64,000 bases of DNA from Escherichia phage vB_EcoM_TU01: sequence record MZ560701; one strand, 5' to 3'. The notes under the pieces were generated by a model that saw nothing but the letters and a program-made list of their open reading frames with translations, searched no databases and was not told the origin of the DNA. Below are positions 42,127 through 52,700 of the stretch, in pieces. A program made the position numbers and the translations under genes. Numbering within the stretch: position 1 is the first letter of the stretch; each line of letters begins with the position of its first letter.

Positions 42127-44838
42127 ATGAAAGAATTTTACTTAACGGTTGAACAGATTGGTGATTCAATTTTTGAACGTTACATCGATTCTAATGGCCG
42201 TGAACGTACTCGTGAAGTAGAATATAAACCATCACTGTTTGCTCATTGTCCAGAAAGTCAGGCTACGAAATATTTCGATATCTACGGTAAGCCGTGTACT
42301 CGTAAGTTGTTCGCTAATATGCGTGATGCCTCCCAATGGATTAAACGCATGGAAGATATCGGACTTGAAGCACTTGGCATGGACGATTTCAAATTGGCGT
42401 ATTTGTCTGACACTTATAACTATGAAATCAAATACGACCATACAAAAATTCGTGTGGCTAACTTCGACATCGAAGTAACATCTCCGGACGGGTTCCCTGA
42501 GCCGTCACAAGCAAAACATCCGATTGATGCTATCACCCATTATGACTCAATTGACGACAGGTTCTACGTATTTGATCTATTGAATTCTCCATATGGTAAT
42601 GTAGAAGAATGGTCTATCGAAATCGCTGCTAAGCTTCAAGAACAAGGCGGTGATGAAGTTCCATCCGAAATTATCGATAAAATCATTTATATGCCGTTCG
42701 ATAACGAAAAAGAATTGTTGATGGAATATCTCAACTTCTGGCAACAGAAAACTCCTGTCATTTTGACTGGATGGAACGTTGAGTCATTTGATATTCCATA
42801 TGTGTATAACCGAATCAAGAATATTTTTGGCGAATCTACTGCGAAACGTTTATCACCACATCGTAAAACTCGTGTTAAAGTTATCGAAAACATGTATGGT
42901 TCTCGTGAAATCATTACATTGTTCGGTATCTCTGTTCTTGATTACATTGACCTTTACAAAAAATTCTCTTTTACCAATCAACCGTCGTATTCTCTGGATT
43001 ACATTTCAGAATTTGAATTGAACGTTGGTAAACTGAAATATGACGGCCCTATTTCTAAGCTTCGTGAAAGCAATCACCAACGATACATTTCTTATAACAT
43101 TATCGACGTGTATCGTGTATTGCAAATTGATGGTAAACGTCAGTTCATTAACTTGAGCTTGGACATGGGTTATTATGCTAAGATACAGATTCAATCTGTG
43201 TTTAGCCCAATTAAAACATGGGATGCTATTATTTTTAATAGCCTTAAAGAGCAGAACAAGGTGATTCCACAAGGTCGTTCTCACCCGGTTCAACCTTATC
43301 CTGGCGCTTTTGTTAAGGAACCTATTCCAAATCGATACAAATATGTGATGAGCTTCGACCTCACATCTCTGTATCCAAGTATTATTCGCCAAGTGAATAT
43401 TAGCCCAGAAACAATAGCAGGAACGTTTAAAGTAGCTCCATTGCATGATTATATTAACGCTGTTGCTGAACGTCCTTCTGATGTGTACAGTTGTTCTCCT
43501 AACGGCATGATGTATTATAAAGACCGTGACGGTGTTGTTCCAACTGAAATCACTAAGGTCTTTAATCAACGTAAAGAACATAAAGGTTANATGCTTGCAG
43601 CTCAACGTAATGGTGAAATAATTAAAGAGGCATTGCATAATCCTAATCTTTCTGTTGACGAACCATTAGATGTTGATTATCGTTTCGACTTCAGTGATGA
43701 GATTAAAGAAAAGATTAAAAAGTTGTCTGCTAAATCTCTTAATGAAATGTTGTTTAGAGCTCAACGTACTGAAGTTGCAGGTATGACTGCACAGATTAAC
43801 CGTAAATTGCTTATCAACTCNCTTTATGGTGCACTTGGAAACGTNTGGTTCCGTTATTANGATTTGCGTAATGCTACTGCAATCACAACATTCGGGCAAA
43901 TGGCTTTACAGTGGATTGAACGTAAAGTTAATGAATATCTGAATGAAGTTTGTGGCACAGAAGGTGAAGCTTTCGTTCTTTATGGTGATACAGACTCTAT
44001 TTACGTATCTGCNGATAAAATTATCGATAAGGTTGGTGAATCTAAATTCCGTGATACCAACCATTGGGTAGACTTCTTAGATAAGTTTGCACGTGAACGT
44101 ATGGAACCAGCTATTGATAGAGGTTTCCGTGAAATGTGTGAATATATGAACAATAAACAACACTTAATGTTCATGGACCGAGAAGCTATCGCTGGTCCTC
44201 CGCTCGGTTCTAAAGGTATTGGTGGATTCTGGACTGGTAAGAAACGTTATGCATTAAACGTGTGGGATATGGAAGGTACTCGTTACGCTGAACCTAAGCT
44301 TAAAATCATGGGTCTCGAGACGCAGAAATCTTCGACTCCTAAAGCAGTACAGAAAGCTCTTAAAGAATGTATTCGTCGTATGCTTCAAGAAGGTGAAGAA
44401 TCATTACAAGAATATTTTAAAGAGTTTGAAAAAGAATTCCGTCAATTGAATTATATTAGCATCGCGTCGGTATCTTCTGCGAATAACATTGCTAAATATG
44501 ATGTAGGTGGATTCCCTGGTCCCAAATGTCCGTTCCATATTCGTGGAATTCTGACGTATAACCGGGCTATCAAAGGTAATATCGATGCACCGCAAGTTGT
44601 AGAAGGTGAAAAAGTATATGTTCTGCCTTTACGTGAAGGAAACCCATTCGGTGATAAATGTATCGCATGGCCTTCTGGTACTGAAATCACAGATTTAATT
44701 AAAGACGACGTACTTCATTGGATGGACTACACTGTTCTCCTTGAGAAGACATTTATTAAACCACTTGAAGGATTCACATCAGCAGCGAAACTCGATTACG
44801 AGAAGAAAGCATCTCTGTTCGATATGTTCGATTTTTGA
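42127..44838 (+). CDS. 43: DNA polymerase gp43 (family B)
   Basis: 903 aa; exonuclease and polymerase motifs (DIE, YGDTDS); sequence matches the RB69 gp43 I recall. Confidence 0.97.
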   Translation: MKEFYLTVEQIGDSIFERYIDSNGRERTREVEYKPSLFAHCPESQATKYFDIYGKPCTRKLFANMRDASQWIKRMEDIGLEALGMDDFKLAYLSDTYNYEIKYDHTKIRVANFDIEVTSPDGFPEPSQAKHPIDAITHYDSIDDRFYVFDLLNSPYGNVEEWSIEIAAKLQEQGGDEVPSEIIDKIIYMPFDNEKELLMEYLNFWQQKTPVILTGWNVESFDIPYVYNRIKNIFGESTAKRLSPHRKTRVKVIENMYGSREIITLFGISVLDYIDLYKKFSFTNQPSYSLDYISEFELNVGKLKYDGPISKLRESNHQRYISYNIIDVYRVLQIDGKRQFINLSLDMGYYAKIQIQSVFSPIKTWDAIIFNSLKEQNKVIPQGRSHPVQPYPGAFVKEPIPNRYKYVMSFDLTSLYPSIIRQVNISPETIAGTFKVAPLHDYINAVAERPSDVYSCSPNGMMYYKDRDGVVPTEITKVFNQRKEHKGXMLAAQRNGEIIKEALHNPNLSVDEPLDVDYRFDFSDEIKEKIKKLSAKSLNEMLFRAQRTEVAGMTAQINRKLLINXLYGALGNXWFRYXDLRNATAITTFGQMALQWIERKVNEYLNEVCGTEGEAFVLYGDTDSIYVSXDKIIDKVGESKFRDTNHWVDFLDKFARERMEPAIDRGFREMCEYMNNKQHLMFMDREAIAGPPLGSKGIGGFWTGKKRYALNVWDMEGTRYAEPKLKIMGLETQKSSTPKAVQKALKECIRRMLQEGEESLQEYFKEFEKEFRQLNYISIASVSSANNIAKYDVGGFPGPKCPFHIRGILTYNRAIKGNIDAPQVVEGEKVYVLPLREGNPFGDKCIAWPSGTEITDLIKDDVLHWMDYTVLLEKTFIKPLEGFTSAAKLDYEKKASLFDMFDF

Positions 44839-44878
44839 TATAATGACATGGACGGTAAACTAATTAAATGAGAGAAAT

Positions 44879-45514
44879 ATGAAAACTACTCCTATTACTA
44901 TCGCTATTGACGCAATCATAAAACAAGCTTCTTCTTTGGCCGCTATGGCCAAAGTAATTAGTCAAAACCCTGCTCGTTATAATGCTATTCTAGAAACTCT
45001 TCGACGCCCAGGACTTAGNAATTANGAAAGCCGAGTAATTATTACAGGTGTTGGTAAGAATGCTAATATTGCAACTAAAGCTTCTGAGACATTTGCTTCA
45101 CTCGGTATCCCGAGTATGTACTTGAACACCGGGCATTATTCTCACGGTGATGCAGGATTCATTGCGCCTAATGATGTGTTGATTCATATTAGTCGTTCTG
45201 GTAAAACTGAAGAAATGATAGGCGTTGCTAAGCATCTTAAAATGATTCGTCCGAACGTCAAACAGATTCTGTTGCATTGTAACCCAGACATTCCACAAGA
45301 AAATGAAGCCCTTTTTGATTACTCTTTCTGTACAGGCATCGCAGTAGAGGTTGATGAGAATTCTCTGGCTCCGACTATGTCCACTACATTGTTGTTAGCG
45401 CTTATCGATACTTTTGCTATCAACCTTTCGTCTGAGCGTGGATTTACCTCTAATGACTTCCTTAAGTTCCACCCTGGTGGTGCACTAGGTGCCATGTTAC
45501 GAGGCGAACAATGA
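44879..45514 (+). CDS. SIS-domain sugar-phosphate isomerase (arabinose-5-phosphate isomerase KdsD/GutQ-like, no CBS domains)
   Basis: ITGVGKN...HGDAG...SRSGKTEE...APTMSTT...FHPGGALG parallel the E. coli KdsD SIS domain. Confidence 0.8.
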   Translation: MKTTPITIAIDAIIKQASSLAAMAKVISQNPARYNAILETLRRPGLXNXESRVIITGVGKNANIATKASETFASLGIPSMYLNTGHYSHGDAGFIAPNDVLIHISRSGKTEEMIGVAKHLKMIRPNVKQILLHCNPDIPQENEALFDYSFCTGIAVEVDENSLAPTMSTTLLLALIDTFAINLSSERGFTSNDFLKFHPGGALGAMLRGEQ

Positions 45515-45654
45515 AAGCAATAACAATAGGACTTTTACTATTGATGCTTGTCATGACTATCTACTGGAGCTTAACGGCTCCAGTAATGATTCCAACACTT
45601 GTAATTGGATGGATTATGATTGGACTACAAGCAAAGTATGAATGCTTTAACTAG
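45511..45654 (+). CDS. small membrane peptide (47 aa)
   Basis: Hydrophobic ORF overlapping upstream stop. Confidence 0.35.
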   Translation: MKAITIGLLLLMLVMTIYWSLTAPVMIPTLVIGWIMIGLQAKYECFN

Positions 45655-45695
45655 AATAGTGTACAATACTCCTACTTACCAATGAGGACNNCAAC

Positions 45696-47381
45696 ATGAA
45701 AAAAGCTGTTATTCTTGGTGCTGGACTGGCAACTCGTTTGTATCCAATAACGCATCATATTCCTAAGGTGCTTGTTAACTATAAACAAGACACTATTCTG
45801 AGCAATTTGTATACAATTTATTCTGACCTTGGCGCAGATGAAATTATTGTAGTAGTTCATTCAAAATTTGCTGAAACTGTTCGAGCTTATTGTGAGCAAG
45901 AAGGGTTCAATGTGACTATTCGTACAGTTGATGAAGCGTATGGTTCTGCTTATGCTCTTGCTAAATTACACAAAGATTTAGACGGCCATAATGTAATTGT
46001 TAACTGGTGTGATATTATTCCTGATTTTGGTTCATGGTCTTGGAATGTTAACGCAATCTATGTTAAGGGTGATGAATGTCGATATAATTTCGACGGTGAA
46101 AATATCACTAACGTAGGTTCAACAGGTGGTAATGTTGTAGGAATTTATCAGTTCAAAGACTGGGAATTCTATATGGGTTCTACTGATGAGGAAATTCATG
46201 AATACTGCAAAGGACGTGATTTCGTAGAATTCCTTTACGGCAGCGCATTCAATAAATCAGAGCTTATGAATCTAATTGATTTAGGTGATATGCCTAAACT
46301 TGAAAAAGCTCATGAAGTTCGTGAACTTAATCGTAGTTTTAATGCAGTTGAAATTGGTGAAGAAACTGTAACTAAATTCGCATTAACCGAACAGGGTCGA
46401 GCTCTTCAGAAAGATGAGATTTCATGGTATCTTAAAGTGAAATCAGATTCAGTTCCTCAGTTAGTTTCTGTTAATGAAAATAACTTTGAAATGGAACGCA
46501 TTAAAGGTAAGCCGGCATTTGAATATATTAAATCCAAATCGAGTCTTGCTCGTCCACAAATTGTTGATGCAATTTTAGATGCACTGAAATTCAGCACAGA
46601 CACTTATTTTGTAAGTCCTGAAACTGTTCGTCGTGATTTCACTAAAGAATTCTATACGAAAGTTATTGATCGTTGTGAAAGTATTCAACCATTGATTGAT
46701 TCATTTGGTAAAATCACACATGTGAACTACACTAAGATTGGACGTCTGAAGCCAATGCTGAAACAAGCTTTAGAACACCTTATTCGTTATCATAACCGTT
46801 CTCAGGGACAGTACTCTGTTATTCATGGCGACCCGAACTTCAGTAATACTATGATTACTGATAACGGCGAAGTCAAGTTTATCGACCCTCGTGGATATTT
46901 TGGTGAAACCAAGATTTACGGGCCAAAATTGTACGATGAAGCTAAAGTGCTTTATGCTGTTTCAGGTTATGATGAATTCAACGCTAATCCGACCTGGGGA
47001 CAGTTTACTATTGACGAAACAACTTGTAATGTGACTATTAACATCAATCCATTAATTTACAAATATGGAAAGCTGAGTTCGTTTAACGAGTATCATCATT
47101 TGGCCGTAGCAATTATCTGGATTGCATTAGGTGGTTATTTCAAGAATAATCCACTTAAAGCGGTAGCCGCATATTATAAAGGTATGGAACTTCTGACTAA
47201 GCAATTACGTAACATGGGCCGTGTACTTCAAGACGGCTCTATTAGTTATGACGTAGCAGAACCTGTAACGGCTACTCTGATTACAAAAAATCCTGGTAAA
47301 TGGGTACTAACTGATAAAGAAACTGGTGTTTCCTATCGTCCAATCGGTGGCGATATCACTCATCAATGGGAACGAATCTAA
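45696..47381 (+). CDS. bifunctional sugar-1-phosphate nucleotidyltransferase / APH-ChoK-like kinase
   Basis: N-terminal ILGAGLATRL (GxGTRL sugar-NTase motif); C-terminal HGDPNFSN...KFIDP (kinase catalytic loop). Confidence 0.75.
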   Translation: MKKAVILGAGLATRLYPITHHIPKVLVNYKQDTILSNLYTIYSDLGADEIIVVVHSKFAETVRAYCEQEGFNVTIRTVDEAYGSAYALAKLHKDLDGHNVIVNWCDIIPDFGSWSWNVNAIYVKGDECRYNFDGENITNVGSTGGNVVGIYQFKDWEFYMGSTDEEIHEYCKGRDFVEFLYGSAFNKSELMNLIDLGDMPKLEKAHEVRELNRSFNAVEIGEETVTKFALTEQGRALQKDEISWYLKVKSDSVPQLVSVNENNFEMERIKGKPAFEYIKSKSSLARPQIVDAILDALKFSTDTYFVSPETVRRDFTKEFYTKVIDRCESIQPLIDSFGKITHVNYTKIGRLKPMLKQALEHLIRYHNRSQGQYSVIHGDPNFSNTMITDNGEVKFIDPRGYFGETKIYGPKLYDEAKVLYAVSGYDEFNANPTWGQFTIDETTCNVTININPLIYKYGKLSSFNEYHHLAVAIIWIALGGYFKNNPLKAVAAYYKGMELLTKQLRNMGRVLQDGSISYDVAEPVTATLITKNPGKWVLTDKETGVSYRPIGGDITHQWERI

Positions 47382-47767
47382 TGCACCGTGTAGAAAACAT
47401 GCTTAATCTTTGTTTTGATGTCGATGATTGTATAACAGAGTGGAATAACAATCGTGATTACGTGAACTTCAAGCCGGACGTCGAAATGGTGAATGCCATT
47501 AATGCCCTGTATGATGCAGGGCACACAATAACGCTTTACACTGCTCGCGGTATGAAGTCAGTAGGTCCTGGTCGTATAGCAATTGACATTCTCCCAAGTC
47601 TTATTCAGAACTTGGCAAACATTGGCTTGAAGTACCATAATTTGCTAACACATAAACCAGTATATGATTGGATTATCGACGACAAAGCTATGCGTCCTGA
47701 CGAATTCAAAGCTCTTATGAATAAAGGCGAATTCGAAACATTTAAATCATATAAACCGAATCTATAA
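47380..47767 (+). CDS. HAD-family phosphatase
   Basis: DxDx motif CFDVDDCIT near N-terminus; small KdsC-like size. Confidence 0.65.
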
Positions 47768-47821
47768 TAATTTAAGTAAGACCTGCAAAAACCATCGCAT
47801 CAATTAACGCGAGATGCAAAA

Positions 47822-48982
47822 ATGAATACTTTTAAAATCGGAACGAATTTTGATTTAGCTCTTCTTGATAAAATCGTAGAGCTCAATAAAACTTATCCTA
47901 ATAGCTTGATAAACGAAGTATATGGCTCTACAAGAGAAATGGCTTTTGTAGCAGCCAGACCTGATTTTAGGCTTCCTGACGTTGACAAAAAGATGTTAGA
48001 AGATTACGTTAAACGTTGTAACGAATTAGGTATTTGCTTTAACTATACACTCAACACGATAAATCCTGGTTCAAAAAGAGAACTAGTTGAGTGGAAGAAG
48101 AAAGCTATTCAGGACTATGTTCAGTATCTTTGGTCAATAGGCGTATGGCGTATTACTATCGCTAACCCTGTTGTTATGGAAATTGTTCGTGAAGTCAATA
48201 AAGACATTGAGATTGAAGTTTCAACAATTTTACATGTCGATGCTGTAACTCAAATCAAATACTTACATGACCAGTATAATATCAAAAAGGTCTGCTGTGG
48301 AATTCATAAGAACCGTTCAGTTTCTTTCCTGAAGCGTGCAGCAGAGTTTTGCAATAAGAACAATATAATATTTGAAGTTCTTGTAAATGAGTTCTGTTCT
48401 AATGCTGGTAAAGGGTATACAACACATTGTAGCTATCGTGACTCTTGCTATATTTTCCATAGTACTGATGTTACAGCTGATGATGCTAAATCCTTAAATG
48501 GATATCCTATGCAGCACTGTATTAAAGCTCGTGATACAGACCCATTTAACTGGTTGAGAACTCGTTTTGTTCGTCCACAAGATTTGAAACTTTATAATGA
48601 TATTGGTATCACTCAATTTAAAGTTTCGGGACGTACAGGTAGCACCGACTACATTTTGAAAGTTCTTGAAGCTTATGCTTCTGAAAAGTTTGAAGGTAAT
48701 TTGTTGGAATTGTGGAAGCCTTTAGAGACCATTTTCACTCTTGAAAATGAGACCGAGTTTTCACATACGGTAAATATTGAAACCTCTTTGTTAGACGGCT
48801 TTTTAGAAAAAAGGTGGTTCAGACATCCGGATTTCGATTGTGCTAATGAAATCTGCGGGACGACGTGTACATATTGTGAAAGATATTATAAACGTCAGTT
48901 ATCTAAAAATGGGTTATCAGAAAATTCTATATCTATTATTGATATAACTAACTCTGACGACGCTTTGAGGTACCCAGAATGA
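47822..48982 (+). CDS. Cys-rich enzyme of unknown function (386 aa)
   Basis: Long ORF; Cys clusters EFCSNAGKGYTTHCSYRDSC and CANEICGTTCTYC. Confidence 0.6.
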   Translation: MNTFKIGTNFDLALLDKIVELNKTYPNSLINEVYGSTREMAFVAARPDFRLPDVDKKMLEDYVKRCNELGICFNYTLNTINPGSKRELVEWKKKAIQDYVQYLWSIGVWRITIANPVVMEIVREVNKDIEIEVSTILHVDAVTQIKYLHDQYNIKKVCCGIHKNRSVSFLKRAAEFCNKNNIIFEVLVNEFCSNAGKGYTTHCSYRDSCYIFHSTDVTADDAKSLNGYPMQHCIKARDTDPFNWLRTRFVRPQDLKLYNDIGITQFKVSGRTGSTDYILKVLEAYASEKFEGNLLELWKPLETIFTLENETEFSHTVNIETSLLDGFLEKRWFRHPDFDCANEICGTTCTYCERYYKRQLSKNGLSENSISIIDITNSDDALRYPE

Positions 48983-49216
48983 TTTCTAGAAAAACTTTTA
49001 ACCACCAACTTAATGAAGAGATTTTGACTATAAAAATTAACAGCAACGAACAAATTCTTAAAAAGGCCCTTATGGGCCTGTTTGAAACTAAAGCGGCTAA
49101 AGCGATTAAAGAAACCTGTTCAACTAGAATACTATGCCGACGCATTCCTTCATAGTGTCCTTGGAAGTATTGATGCCGAAGCTCTACGTTATATCAACAT
49201 CGCTAAGAAATTCAAA

Positions 49217-49242
49217 TAAGCTTTATGAATTGAGTATATAAT
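49217..49242 (+). promoter_or_regulatory. middle-type promoter (GCTTTA, 11 nt, TATAAT)
   Basis: Upstream of gene 42. Confidence 0.45.
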
Positions 49243-49261
49243 AAACTGTATTGAGGTAAAC

Positions 49262-49978
49262 ATGGGAAAACATAACACAATGAAATATATTAAAGCCGCA
49301 GATTTTCAATCCGCATTTAAAGCTGTCAATCGTGAAATTTTAGAAAACCCAGAATTCGTAACTGATTCTCGTATTGGACGTTGTAATGAAATTGGGTCTA
49401 TGACAGTAGTTGTTGACACTCCATCATCATTCAAAATGACCGACCCACGTATTAACCGCATCTCTTATGAATATGCCGAAGATTTCTGGAAATTTATGAT
49501 TTCTGGCGGNACTGANGCAGAAGAAGCATTTAAGGCATATCCTAATGTCGCTAAATTTATTTCTAAACCAAAATCAGACGCTTTGCCTGCGAACTTCAAC
49601 ACTTTCTATGGTCCTCGCATTGCGGCCCAATTACCAGCTCTTCTAAAAGAACTTAAAGAGAAGCCTAACTCTCGAAGAGTTGTGTTCCAAATTCTTGAAA
49701 GTTCTGATCAGGCTTTGCTTGATTCGGACGAAACGCTTGAATATCCATGTACTGACTCAGTGACTTATTATATTCGTGATGGTAAGCTTTATACCCACTG
49801 TCATATGCGTTCCCAGAACTGTGCTGTTGTTATGCAGTTGGATTTTTATCTCCAAGGAAAATTACTTCATTATATCGCTAAAGAATGCGGTGTAGAAGTT
49901 GGTGATTATACTCATACCATGGTAAGTGCCCATGTGTTTGAACGTGATTTTGATTATGTTAAAGGATTCCTTGACTAA
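49262..49978 (+). CDS. 42: dCMP hydroxymethylase (thymidylate-synthase fold)
   Basis: Syntenic with T4 gene 42; candidate nucleophile in EYPCTDSVTYY; diverged from T4. Confidence 0.75.
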   Translation: MGKHNTMKYIKAADFQSAFKAVNREILENPEFVTDSRIGRCNEIGSMTVVVDTPSSFKMTDPRINRISYEYAEDFWKFMISGXTXAEEAFKAYPNVAKFISKPKSDALPANFNTFYGPRIAAQLPALLKELKEKPNSRRVVFQILESSDQALLDSDETLEYPCTDSVTYYIRDGKLYTHCHMRSQNCAVVMQLDFYLQGKLLHYIAKECGVEVGDYTHTMVSAHVFERDFDYVKGFLD

Positions 49979-50877
49979 TGGCTATTTTCCGCGTACCTAT
50001 CTTGAGTATGCGGTCTTATGAAACCGGACAGTATGCTATCCTTAAGGATGGCAACTTCCAACTTCATTTGCACCGTGCTAATCCGGGTGATGTGATTACA
50101 TATCCACGTAATGCATCTGATATTAAAGAATGTGAACGTCTTTTCCCAGAATTTAAGTTTGTTCCATTATGGTATAAAGATAACGCGTATAACACTCGTA
50201 AATATTTCTGGTCTGAAAATGAATTTGTGGTTGATTCATTAATTGCTTATTATGATTGTGATTTTCTAATCACAGATATCACTGGATATGACGGAGCTTT
50301 TGATGTAGAATTCAATTTCAATATCACTGCAGACCCTAATAAACCACGTTTTTATATTGACGAATTCTTAAAAACCGACATGTTGTCGGTTAATCGTTCA
50401 CTTCAAACTACTGTGTTGAATGAACGTCAAAAAGAAGTGCTGGTTAACGCTGGTGCAGATGGTAATAAGATTATCGTAACCCAGAAAGTTATACGTCCTT
50501 CCATCATGCAGCGTCTTGTAGGTGATTTGGCTCCTATTCATCTAGATGGTATTTTTCATCCATTTCGAATTAGTGACCCGTGCTATCGTTTTGAACAAGT
50601 GGTTGAATGTGCAATTCAATTAGGTCAACCGCTTTATGTAACCGATCCAAATAATAGTTTCGATAGAAATAAGTATCCTGAAGAAGCGCTGATTCGAATT
50701 TTTAAACCAACTAAAACTGAGTACTATCAAATTCTTAAAGGACGGCCGAAGATTCAATATTTCGAAAATCCTGAAGAAGTATTCCATCCAGGTCTTGGCG
50801 AGTTCATCTACTTTAATGCTTTAATTTCTTCACCGTATAATATACCTAAATACGAAGATGTCGTAATCGAGGAATAA
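49978..50877 (+). CDS. hypothetical protein at the beta-glucosyltransferase position (candidate DNA sugar transferase)
   Basis: 299 aa ORF directly after gene 42; no similarity to T4 beta-gt recognised. Confidence 0.5.
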   Translation: MAIFRVPILSMRSYETGQYAILKDGNFQLHLHRANPGDVITYPRNASDIKECERLFPEFKFVPLWYKDNAYNTRKYFWSENEFVVDSLIAYYDCDFLITDITGYDGAFDVEFNFNITADPNKPRFYIDEFLKTDMLSVNRSLQTTVLNERQKEVLVNAGADGNKIIVTQKVIRPSIMQRLVGDLAPIHLDGIFHPFRISDPCYRFEQVVECAIQLGQPLYVTDPNNSFDRNKYPEEALIRIFKPTKTEYYQILKGRPKIQYFENPEEVFHPGLGEFIYFNALISSPYNIPKYEDVVIEE

Positions 50878-50878
50878 A

Positions 50879-51427
50879 ATGGCTAAAATTATTTTAGTAG
50901 ATGGCCCGGATAATGCTGGTAAAACAACTTTCATTAATGATATAATGGAAATTAGTGAAAGATATGTAAAGATTGATTTCCCTAAACGAACAGTTGATGG
51001 ACGTTTCGATGTTAAGTCTCGAAATGAAGTTGGCTGTTTCGAAACGATGTTGAATTATTTAGACCCTACTAAGATTTATCTGTTAGACCGTGGATATATT
51101 AGTAACTGGGTTTATGGACGTATTCGACAAGATGCGGACTCGGTTCTTGACGTTTATGAACAGGATTATGTTCGTCTTTGCCAAAACCATGATGTGTTCA
51201 CAATTATTTTAACACGTAACGAAATGACTGAAAGTTTTGAAGACGACCTTATTACTTTGTCTTCATTCGGTTTTAATACAGTCATTTCACATTTTGAAGA
51301 GTTTGCAATTCATAACAAAATCCAAACGTATCAATTACTTAATCATGATGGTGCTAACAAAGTTATAGGATTTAATGCAAGCGAACGTAATTATTTGATT
51401 ACAGAAATTATCAAATGGGCTCGTTAA
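50879..51427 (+). CDS. P-loop kinase-like protein
   Basis: Walker A GPDNAGKTT at N-terminus; 182 aa. Confidence 0.55.
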   Translation: MAKIILVDGPDNAGKTTFINDIMEISERYVKIDFPKRTVDGRFDVKSRNEVGCFETMLNYLDPTKIYLLDRGYISNWVYGRIRQDADSVLDVYEQDYVRLCQNHDVFTIILTRNEMTESFEDDLITLSSFGFNTVISHFEEFAIHNKIQTYQLLNHDGANKVIGFNASERNYLITEIIKWAR

Positions 51428-51446
51428 GAGCCTGTTTAAAGTTTTT

Positions 51447-51474
51447 AAATGCTGTATAACCCTTAGTATATAAT
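51447..51474 (+). promoter_or_regulatory. middle-type promoter (TGCTGTA, 12 nt, TATAAT)
   Basis: Upstream of uvsX. Confidence 0.4.
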
Positions 51475-51527
51475 CGTCTTATCTTTTAAACATGAGTAAA
51501 ATATAATGATGCCTATGGAAAAATACA

Positions 51528-52700
51528 ATGTCTGATTTAAAATCTCGTCTGATTAAAGCTTCTACTTCTAAAATGACTGCAGACTTGACTAAGTCTAAGC
51601 TGTTTAATAATCGTGATGAAGTCCCTACTCGTATTCCGATGTTGAATATTGCATTAGGTGGTGCACTGAATGCCGGGTTGCAATCAGGCTTAACTATTTT
51701 TGCTGCTCCTTCTAAACACTTTAAAACGTTGTTTGGACTGACCATGGTTGCAGCATATATGAAGAAATATAAAGATGCAATTTGTTTGTTCTATGATTCA
51801 GAATTTGGTGCTTCAGAATCTTATTTTCGTTCAATGGGTGTTGATTTAGACCGTGTAGTTCATACTCCGATTCAATCTGTCGAACAACTTAAAGTTGATA
51901 TGACTAATCAGCTTGACGCGATTGAACGTGGTGATAAAGTTATTATCTTTATCGATTCAATCGGTAATACTGCATCTAAGAAAGAAACTGAAGATGCGTT
52001 GAACGAGAAAGTTGTAGGTGATATGTCTCGTGCTAAGGCACTTAAATCTCTGTTCCGCATTGTGACTCCTTATCTGACTATTAAAGATATTCCATGTGTT
52101 GCAATCAACCATACAGCAATGGAAATCGGCGGACTATATCCTAAAGAGATTATGGGCGGTGGTACAGGTATTCTTTACTCTGCTAACACTGTATTCTTTA
52201 TCTCTAAACGTCAGGTTAAAGAAGGTACAGAATTGACCGGNTANGANTTCACGTTGAAAGCAGAAAAATCTCGTACAGTTAAAGAGAAATCTACTTTCCC
52301 GATCACGGTTAATTTTGATGGCGGTATTGACCCATTCAGTGGCTTGTTAGAAATGGCAACTGAAATTGGTTTTGTAGTTAAGCCTAAAGCCGGTTGGTAC
52401 GCTCGCGAATTCCTTGACGAAGAAACAGGCGAAATGATTCGTGAAGAAAAATCATGGCGTGCTAAAGCTACTGATTGTGTAGAATTCTGGGGACCATTGT
52501 TTAAACACAAACCTTTCCGAGATGCAATTGAAACTAAATATAAACTAGGTGCTATCTCTTCTATTAAAGAAGTTGATGACGCTGTTAATGACCTTATTAA
52601 TTGCAAAGCAACAACTAAAGTTCCGGTTAAAACTTCTGATGCTCCGTCTGCAGCAGATATAGAAAACGACCTTGACGAAATGGAAGATTTCGATGAATAA
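51528..52700 (+). CDS. uvsX: UvsX recombinase (RecA-like)
   Basis: 390 aa; matches T4 UvsX. Confidence 0.95.
   Translation: MSDLKSRLIKASTSKMTADLTKSKLFNNRDEVPTRIPMLNIALGGALNAGLQSGLTIFAAPSKHFKTLFGLTMVAAYMKKYKDAICLFYDSEFGASESYFRSMGVDLDRVVHTPIQSVEQLKVDMTNQLDAIERGDKVIIFIDSIGNTASKKETEDALNEKVVGDMSRAKALKSLFRIVTPYLTIKDIPCVAINHTAMEIGGLYPKEIMGGGTGILYSANTVFFISKRQVKEGTELTXXXFTLKAEKSRTVKEKSTFPITVNFDGGIDPFSGLLEMATEIGFVVKPKAGWYAREFLDEETGEMIREEKSWRAKATDCVEFWGPLFKHKPFRDAIETKYKLGAISSIKEVDDAVNDLINCKATTKVPVKTSDAPSAADIENDLDEMEDFDE

Follow-up and report, generated by a model that had tools for sequence, protein, structure and literature searches.

A compact GT-B-fold protein of a Mosigvirus is a candidate first arabinosyltransferase in the synthesis of arabinosyl-5-hydroxycytosine

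We analyzed a 64,000-nucleotide (nt) stretch of DNA (the window) from Escherichia phage vB_EcoM_TU01 (sequence record MZ560701), which is placed in Mosigvirus, that is, among the RB69-like T-even phages. An open reading frame (ORF) at 49978 to 50877 on the plus strand encodes a protein of 299 amino acids (aa), which we consider probably to be a priming alpha-arabinofuranosyltransferase that acts on 5-hydroxycytosine: a compact glycosyltransferase (GT) of the GT-B fold, orphan in sequence, in an RB69-like pathway. This assignment draws on fold, orthology, synteny, and phyletic pattern, from which we predict the donor, acceptor, stereochemistry, and catalytic residues. A preliminary description of the window had proposed a sugar transferase for 5-hydroxymethylcytosine (hmC). 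The GT-B model upholds a glycosyltransferase fold but the hmC acceptor does not stand, because this phage group carries 5-hydroxycytosine and the sugar is arabinose. The assignment is already in print for the RB69 ortholog, named "arabinosyltransferase 1" and given an alpha-linked first sugar (PMC13326640), and PMC13390438 agrees; the ORF described here adds no new kind of system.

The ORF is clearly a real gene under purifying selection, as judged from its sequence, because homologs are present in 348 phage records and the codon differences are mostly synonymous (synonymous-to-nonsynonymous counts of 11:2, 17:3, and 17:3 against three close relatives). At the nucleotide level, it is found in 153 phage records with 95 to 99% identity. 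The ATG start codon (49978 to 49980) shares one base with the TAA stop codon of the upstream gene (49976 to 49978; TAATG, in the context GAC TAATG GCT), as had been described. The likeness drawn earlier to the gene 42/beta-gt arrangement of T4 holds for the adjacency of the two genes but not for the overlap, as T4 has a 23-nt spacer there. An AAGGA at 49962 to 49966, ahead of the ATG, could serve as the ribosome-binding site, and the downstream gene begins 2 nt past the ORF stop codon.

Sequence comparisons said little about function. The product (QYC95661.1) is annotated as a hypothetical protein, and searches of Pfam, NCBIfam, PADLOC, and Protein Data Bank (PDB) sequences gave no match, in keeping with the earlier remark that the protein holds no known motif. 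Its sole profile match is PHROG 3891, labeled "unknown function" (E = 5e-156). The label "RNA polymerase binding protein," which UniRef and a few GenBank records attach to the protein, was considered and found to be without support. In the RB69 reference genome, the counterpart is divided between RB69p047 and RB69p046 (locus L004, 2598 to 3498; NC_004928, 24597 to 25497), and alignment with that genome shows its frame to be broken by an additional T at position 545 of the ORF. With this T taken out, 20 of the 900 nucleotides and three nonsynonymous codons distinguish the two sequences. RB69 genes 46 and 47 have been described as a single ORF that a sequencing error divides, and the joined protein has been modeled (PMC13326640). 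BFVD and UniProt carry RB69p047 and RB69p046 as two separate proteins.

To obtain a fold, a single-sequence AlphaFold prediction proved unusable (predicted local distance difference test [pLDDT] score of 36) and was replaced by a model built from an alignment of 74 homologs reaching down to 26 to 35% identity. This model (pLDDT, 95.8; predicted template modeling [TM] score, 0.90) contains two beta-alpha-beta (Rossmann-like) halves with a cleft between them. When it was compared with the PDB using Foldseek, 143 matches were obtained at E ≤ 1e-3, and all 50 of the matches listed have a GT-B fold. These include tetrahydrobiopterin glucosyltransferase (E = 8e-7), MshA (TM score, 0.62), and sucrose-phosphate synthase; UDP-GlcNAc 2-epimerases are also among the matches listed, with lower TM scores. 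Structural neighbors of the model were sucrose-phosphate synthase (PDB code 6kih; score of 17.3, with 267 residues aligned), BshA (16.6), HepE (16.2), PimA (16.0), the glycosyltransferase of phage HY126 (9iqz; 13.8), and T4 alpha-glucosyltransferase (1y6f; 13.1). The preliminary description had suggested comparing a predicted structure with glycosyltransferase folds, and the model indicates that the protein has the GT-B fold rather than one unrelated to these enzymes. Of the known phage DNA glycosyltransferases, a comparison also raised there, T4 alpha-glucosyltransferase is among these structural neighbors. Profile comparison revealed no relation of the ORF family to T4 beta-gt (probability, 0.3%), nor, with hhalign, to the family of RB69 gp3, another phage GT (0.07%). 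The best neighbors are almost all retaining enzymes, which fits the alpha linkage reported for the base-proximal arabinose, the fold being a weak guide to stereochemistry.

Conservation within the family suggests a possible donor site. Twenty residues are invariant in 74 of 74 aligned sequences, including M11-R12-S13, D24-G25-N26, F193, P195-F196-R197, D200, Y203, P224-N225, K246, and H270, and position 275 is Glu in 67 of the 74 and Asp in the other 7. In the model, D24-G25-N26 opens the first helix of the N domain, R197 follows the first strand of the C domain, and H270-P-G-x-x-E275 precedes a C-domain helix. From these secondary-structure positions, as in the GT4 family, we infer that D24-G25-N26, R197, K246, and H270/E275 are candidate residues for binding the diphosphate and ribose of the donor.

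The gene directly upstream (49262 to 49978, plus strand) belongs to the ThyA family and bears on the identity of the acceptor. Its product is 98% identical to RB69 gp48, of which it is the ortholog, and 25% identical to T4 gp42, and it is nearly identical to the HY126 protein crystallized as a "thymidylate synthase" (9iqc, 9ir2, and 9iqu; E = 5e-160). RB69 gp48 makes 5-hydroxy-2'-deoxycytidine monophosphate (5-hydroxy-dCMP, or 5hodCMP) with a flavin cofactor and O2 (PMC13326640), and an Asn at the position of Escherichia coli ThyA D169 has been described as the signature of this enzyme class. The window gene has this Asn (MRSQN), a feature shared with its counterparts in RB69, DLP3, and Thanatos and with two metagenomic relatives, whereas T4 gp42 and the gp42 of Serratia phage PS2 read MRSND. 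Because of its identity to RB69 gp48 and its MRSQN signature, the upstream gene is predicted to encode an enzyme of the 5-hydroxy-dCMP synthase type, not a hydroxymethylase. The preliminary description had called it gene 42. The DNA of RB69 carries beta-D-Araf-(1-3)-alpha-D-Araf (Araf, arabinofuranose), a disaccharide that is O-linked directly to cytosine C5 (PMC13326640), and arabinosyl-5-hydroxycytosine chemistry has been confirmed in another Mosigvirus (PMC13390438). The acceptor base in RB69-group phages is thus 5-hydroxycytosine, not hmC.

We then compared the distribution of the ORF family with that of gp3-type GTs by searching 50,697 phage records with both proteins using tblastn. The 348 records with the ORF family span Escherichia, Acinetobacter, Klebsiella, Shigella, Serratia, Enterobacter, Proteus, Yersinia, and Shewanella phages, and the ORF protein is 46% identical to DLP3 gp79 and 47% identical to Thanatos TH1_063, which has the same gene position. 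The gp3 type was found in 211 records, essentially those of Mosigvirus (one copy) and Acinetobacter phages (two copies); a word-indexed search with gp3 had returned only five relatives. This copy number agrees with the reported sugar counts, RB69 DNA being di-arabinosylated and DLP3 DNA tri-arabinosylated (PMC13326640). In Shewanella phage Thanatos, reported to be mono-arabinosylated, TH1_063 is the sole GT-B protein of the cluster; TH1_065 (378 aa) was considered as a hidden second GT and rejected, as it is a U32 protein. The HY126 GT with solved structures (9iqz and 9ir0) is an ortholog of RB69 gp3 (E = 5e-249 for gp3 against 9iqz) and not of the ORF protein.

The ORF family is the sole GT present in every such cluster examined. 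It directly follows a ThyA homolog of the 5hodCMP synthase type in RB69, HY126, DLP3, Thanatos, a 383-kb contig, and a marine contig, and a 356-kb contig has one extra gene between the two. Since the ORF family is present in all of the clusters, and the gp3 type only where the DNA is di- or tri-arabinosylated, elimination leaves the ORF protein as the priming transferase; an elimination argument for the first arabinosyltransferase has also been made elsewhere (PMC13326640). As the one transferase common to all clusters examined, the family likely carries out the committed step of the modification. Secondary accounts report that deletion of an arabinosyltransferase named "Aat," of this family or another, is viable in Bas46.

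Collectively, these data suggest the following pathway. The upstream module would convert ribulose-5-phosphate to uridine diphosphate (UDP)-D-arabinofuranose (UDP-Araf), and the product of the gene just upstream of the ORF would hydroxylate dCMP at C5. With UDP-Araf as the donor, the ORF protein would attach the first arabinofuranose at the cytosine 5-OH to give the alpha-linked, base-proximal sugar, after which a separate gp3-type GT, encoded outside the window, would add the second arabinose. The acceptor would most likely be 5-hydroxycytosine in DNA that has already been replicated, and the enzyme would reach it by flipping the base out, as the T4 glucosyltransferases do. Fusions of family members to the HAD phosphatase or the Tmk-like kinase of the pathway, described below, were counted in support of a role in it.

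Several observations weigh against this assignment. In the literature consulted, no direct transfer activity is reported for this family. Purified DLP3 gp79 alone, given 5-hydroxycytosine (5hoC) DNA and either UDP-Araf or UDP-arabinopyranose (UDP-Arap), produced no arabinosylation (data not shown there; PMC13326640). Purified Thanatos TH1_063 made UDP-xylose from UTP and xylose-1-phosphate, for which it was named a pyrophosphorylase, and it did not glycosylate DNA, dCMP, or dCTP, acceptors that all lack a 5-OH (PMC12838424). None of the 74 family members matches any GT model in Pfam at E ≤ 1, Glycos_transf_1 included. Conservation of the GT4 EX7E motif does not extend to its first Glu, the residue 8 positions before E275 being K or T in most members. 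Finally, the family is acidic (median isoelectric point of 5.2, versus 9.05 for T4 beta-gt), which is a weak objection given that the DNA-active DLP3 gp77 is also acidic; for that reason, isoelectric point was dropped as an uninformative discriminator between DNA and nucleotide acceptors.

The most probable alternative retains the transferase and changes the acceptor. The authors of PMC13326640 cannot tell whether the first arabinosylation takes place on a mononucleotide or on DNA. In the former case, the GT would arabinosylate 5-hydroxy-dCMP, the Tmk-like kinase would phosphorylate the glycosylated nucleotide, and the polymerase would incorporate the glycosylated dCTP analogue; we regard this as unlikely. 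It is favored by the inactivity of DLP3 gp79 on 5hoC DNA and by the observation that a gp1-type deoxynucleoside monophosphate (dNMP) kinase already phosphorylates 5hodCMP, so that the extra kinase needs explaining (PMC13326640). The acidity of the family was also put on this side. Further support comes from the synthase-GT-kinase triad, which has been maintained across lineages ranging from Mosigvirus to jumbo relatives that share 35% identity: the 383-kb contig, with that identity, carries a flavodoxin-like gene, a small ORF, the ThyA homolog, the GT, and a Tmk-like kinase in order, and the cluster of the 356-kb contig contains an SIS isomerase, a kinase-domain protein, the ThyA homolog, the GT, and a Tmk-like kinase. 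The kinase gene lies directly 3' of the GT in most lineages examined (Thanatos, DLP3, L006, and L007).

Fusion proteins bear on both sides of this question. The family is small: when its profile was run against 1.84 billion representative proteins, 245 matched with E ≤ 1e-3, and 58 of these reached E ≤ 1e-30. GT-Tmk-like kinase fusions, with the P-loop-like motif EGFDRIGKD, occur in at least seven cluster representatives (P0212, P0215, P0219, P0230, P0234, P0242, and P0247), and in P0213 the kinase domain is N-terminal of the GT. At one locus (L013, 7001 to 8725), a GT-kinase fusion adjoins SIS, NTP-transferase, and U32 genes, and the 199-aa gene upstream of it is not ThyA-like. In other lineages, however, the GT is fused instead to the sugar phosphatase and has no adjacent kinase, and a fusion may just mirror gene neighborhood. 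A KdsC-like HAD phosphatase domain is N-terminal of the GT in eight fusions (P0132, P0134, P0138, P0143, P0155, P0157, P0188, and P0211). Two HAD-GT loci (L015 and L016, 7001 to 8656) lie directly after a ThyA homolog of the 5hodCMP synthase type and have neither a separate phosphatase gene nor an adjacent Tmk-like kinase. In one HAD-GT fusion, the preceding ThyA homolog is 46% identical to that of the window and has MRSQN, with a flavin mononucleotide (FMN)-reductase gene beside it and SIS and NTP-transferase genes after the fusion. For the wider genomic context of the fusion proteins, two scans of viral contigs gave no match, and two further look-ups led to contigs shorter than 2 kb.

Incorporation of a preformed nucleotide would also require a polymerase that accepts a bulky C5-O-pentosyl dCTP. 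To our knowledge, the characterized phage DNA glycosyltransferases all act on DNA. A DNA-level route is available, as 5-hydroxy-2'-deoxycytidine (5hodC) enters DNA unglycosylated, and does so readily on expression of gp48 together with a dNMP kinase, and DLP3 gp76 and gp77 act on DNA (PMC13326640). About as improbable, or marginally more so, is the form of this reading in which the first arabinose would be added before replication within a channeled synthase-GT-kinase unit, with the Tmk-like kinase reserved for the glycosylated nucleotide; the observations in its favor would also suit a GT that needs a kinase-like partner. Such a unit, if real, would explain both the inactivity of the GT alone on 5hoC DNA and the existence of the GT-kinase fusions.

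A further reading, in which the ORF protein supplies the donor rather than transferring it, as a UDP-pentose pyrophosphorylase or some other enzyme that handles UDP-sugars (one resembling an epimerase, for instance), appears highly improbable. It takes its support from the UDP-xylose formed in vitro by TH1_063 (PMC12838424), a true homolog with 47% identity and the same gene position. That assay, however, as described, had only a no-enzyme control (PMC12838424). The ORF model has the GT-B fold, with no NTP-transferase fold among the top structural matches and no match to Pfam NTP_transferase, and a bona fide NTP_transferase domain is already present in a 561-aa neighbor whose HY126 ortholog, AfhE, is reported to be the UDP-arabinose pyrophosphorylase. 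Moreover, the mono-arabinosylating phages would then have no transferase. Least probable is a T4 beta-gt-type glucosyltransferase of hmC, which the shared slot between the gene 42 homolog and uvsX and a remote family homolog (19% identity) in Serratia phage PS2, where it follows a gp42 of the true hmC type, might suggest, but which is contradicted by the lack of sequence or profile similarity to T4 beta-gt, by an upstream enzyme that makes 5-hydroxy- and not 5-hydroxymethyl-dCMP, and by published nucleoside chemistry that refutes it for a group whose DNA has arabinose on O5 and no hmC (PMC13326640 and PMC13390438).

The PS2 homolog lies at L010, 7001 to 7927 (Serratia phage PS2, Muldoonvirus), is recovered by hhalign with a probability of 99.2%, and lacks the MRS, DGN, and FRISD motifs. 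After it come homologs of beta-glucosyl-HMC-alpha-glucosyltransferase and beta-gt, and the locus has neither an arabinose module nor a Tmk-like kinase. This protein is possibly either the third GT of an hmC phage or a GT that has degenerated there.

The ORF shares the location of the RB69 gp46:47/DLP3 gp79 family, beside a ThyA homolog of the 5hodCMP synthase type in an arabinose-nucleotide cluster. On the plus strand, the genes run in the order gp43 DNA polymerase, isomerase, NTP-transferase/kinase, HAD phosphatase, U32 protein, ThyA-family protein, ORF, Tmk-like kinase, uvsX, gp40, and gp41. The ORF therefore occupies the beta-gt slot between the gene 42 homolog and uvsX, syntenic with T4, as had been noted, and the donor-sugar module described upstream of it is present as a sugar-nucleotide module of an isomerase, an NTP-transferase/kinase, a HAD phosphatase, the U32-family gene, and the ThyA-family gene. 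The first of these (44879 to 45514, plus strand) encodes an arabinose-5-phosphate isomerase with an SIS domain (Pfam SIS, E = 8e-11; PHROG 5670; NCBIfam KpsF/GutQ, E = 2e-32), which by sequence is predicted to carry out the first step in making the donor sugar. The 561-aa protein (45696 to 47381, plus strand) is a bifunctional sugar kinase/UDP-arabinose pyrophosphorylase of the type of RB69 gp52:53 and HY126 AfhE, with Pfam NTP_transferase at its N terminus, a kinase-like C-terminal domain, and NCBIfam matches to sugar-1-phosphate nucleotidylyltransferases; its ortholog AfhE is summarized as a UDP-arabinose pyrophosphorylase in PMC13326640. The HAD-type sugar phosphatase (47366 to 47767, plus strand) is of the RB69 gp51 and AfhF type (PHROG 1238; NCBIfam TIGR01689, capsule biosynthesis phosphatase, E = 3e-13; PMC13326640).

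The U32-family gene (47822 to 48982, plus strand) is an ortholog of RB69 gp50 (Pfam Peptidase_U32, E = 7e-11; weak match to UbiU, E = 9e-4). It is conserved within the 5-hydroxycytosine cluster and is also found in Thanatos (TH1_065) and in a metagenomic cluster. Among the U32 proteins are RlhA, TrhP, and UbiU, enzymes that hydroxylate without O2, their targets being the C5 position of cytidine or uridine in RNA as well as ubiquinone precursors. By analogy, the phage protein could provide an anaerobic route to 5-hydroxycytosine beside the O2-dependent ThyA-like enzyme. In PMC13326640, it is listed only as a "sugar or heterocycle reductase." Between the U32 and ThyA-like genes, a small ORF (48979 to 49155, plus strand) encodes 58 aa; it is annotated with 79 aa in RB69 and Bas46 and with 40 aa in HY126 and is a variable, possibly decaying small gene. 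Beside the ThyA-like hydroxylase of distant relatives, we observed Flavodoxin_2/FMN-reductase genes (L006, 6426 to 6932; L007, 1 to 523; and L015, 5781 to 6251), which would fit a flavin-reductase partner for a flavin-dependent dCMP hydroxylase; no such gene was seen in this part of the window.

Downstream of the ORF, the Tmk-like P-loop nucleotide kinase gene (50879 to 51427, plus strand) is an ortholog of RB69 gp45 (PHROG 761, thymidylate kinase, E = 2e-45). A consensus scan identified a terminator-like hairpin with a T-rich tail at 51413 to 51437 on the plus strand (10-bp stem with 4 GC pairs), a pattern match alone; situated at the end of the kinase gene and before uvsX, it likely marks the end of a synthase-GT-kinase transcription unit. 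An Rfam scan of 44000 to 52000 found no RNA family. Ambiguous bases (N) form 143 runs across the window, and those near the ORF lie at 44013, 45019, 45025, 45690 to 45691, 49510, and 49516. Residues read as X from such runs fall in gp43, the isomerase, the ThyA-like protein, and UvsX, and the ORF itself is free of N.

Many T4-like phages, among them candidates for therapy against E. coli, Klebsiella, and Acinetobacter, are protected by arabinosyl-5-hydroxycytosine from restriction enzymes and from clustered regularly interspaced short palindromic repeat (CRISPR) systems. The modification also leaves these phages open to type IV restriction systems. The question of whether DNA or a nucleotide is the acceptor is made sharper by the conserved triad and the GT-kinase fusions.

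Among known systems, the closest counterparts of the ORF are RB69 gp46:47, DLP3 gp79, and TH1_063, all covered by PHROG 3891; there is no substantive difference from these, apart from the window copy being an intact ortholog of RB69p047 plus RB69p046, whose frame is split by an extra T in the RB69 record. The extension arabinosyltransferase (RB69 gp3, ORF003c, and the HY126 GT of 9iqz and 9ir0) is unrelated to the ORF protein in sequence and is longer (366 versus 299 aa), and solved structures exist for the gp3 type but not for the ORF protein. T4 beta-gt (CAZy GT63) is alike in its slot after gene 42 and before uvsX, which in T4 holds beta-gt (and segA) with no overlap with gene 42, in its GT-B superfold, and in its presumed decoration of a C5-hydroxylated cytosine. 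It differs in being an inverting enzyme that places glucose on hmC, whereas the ORF protein resembles retaining GT4 enzymes and belongs to a pathway that yields alpha-arabinofuranose on 5-hydroxycytosine. T4 alpha-glucosyltransferase (GT72, 1y6f) shares 12% identity with the ORF protein, which is shorter by about 100 residues, would use another sugar and acceptor, and is structurally nearer to bacterial GT4 enzymes. Those retaining bacterial GT4 enzymes (6kih, BshA, PimA, MshA, and WaaG) provide the best structural matches; the ORF protein is 60 to 100 residues shorter, has no Glycos_transf_1 match, and would act on a nucleobase, and by our mapping it may share with them the Arg, the Lys, and the Glu of H-P-G-x-x-E at putative donor-site positions.

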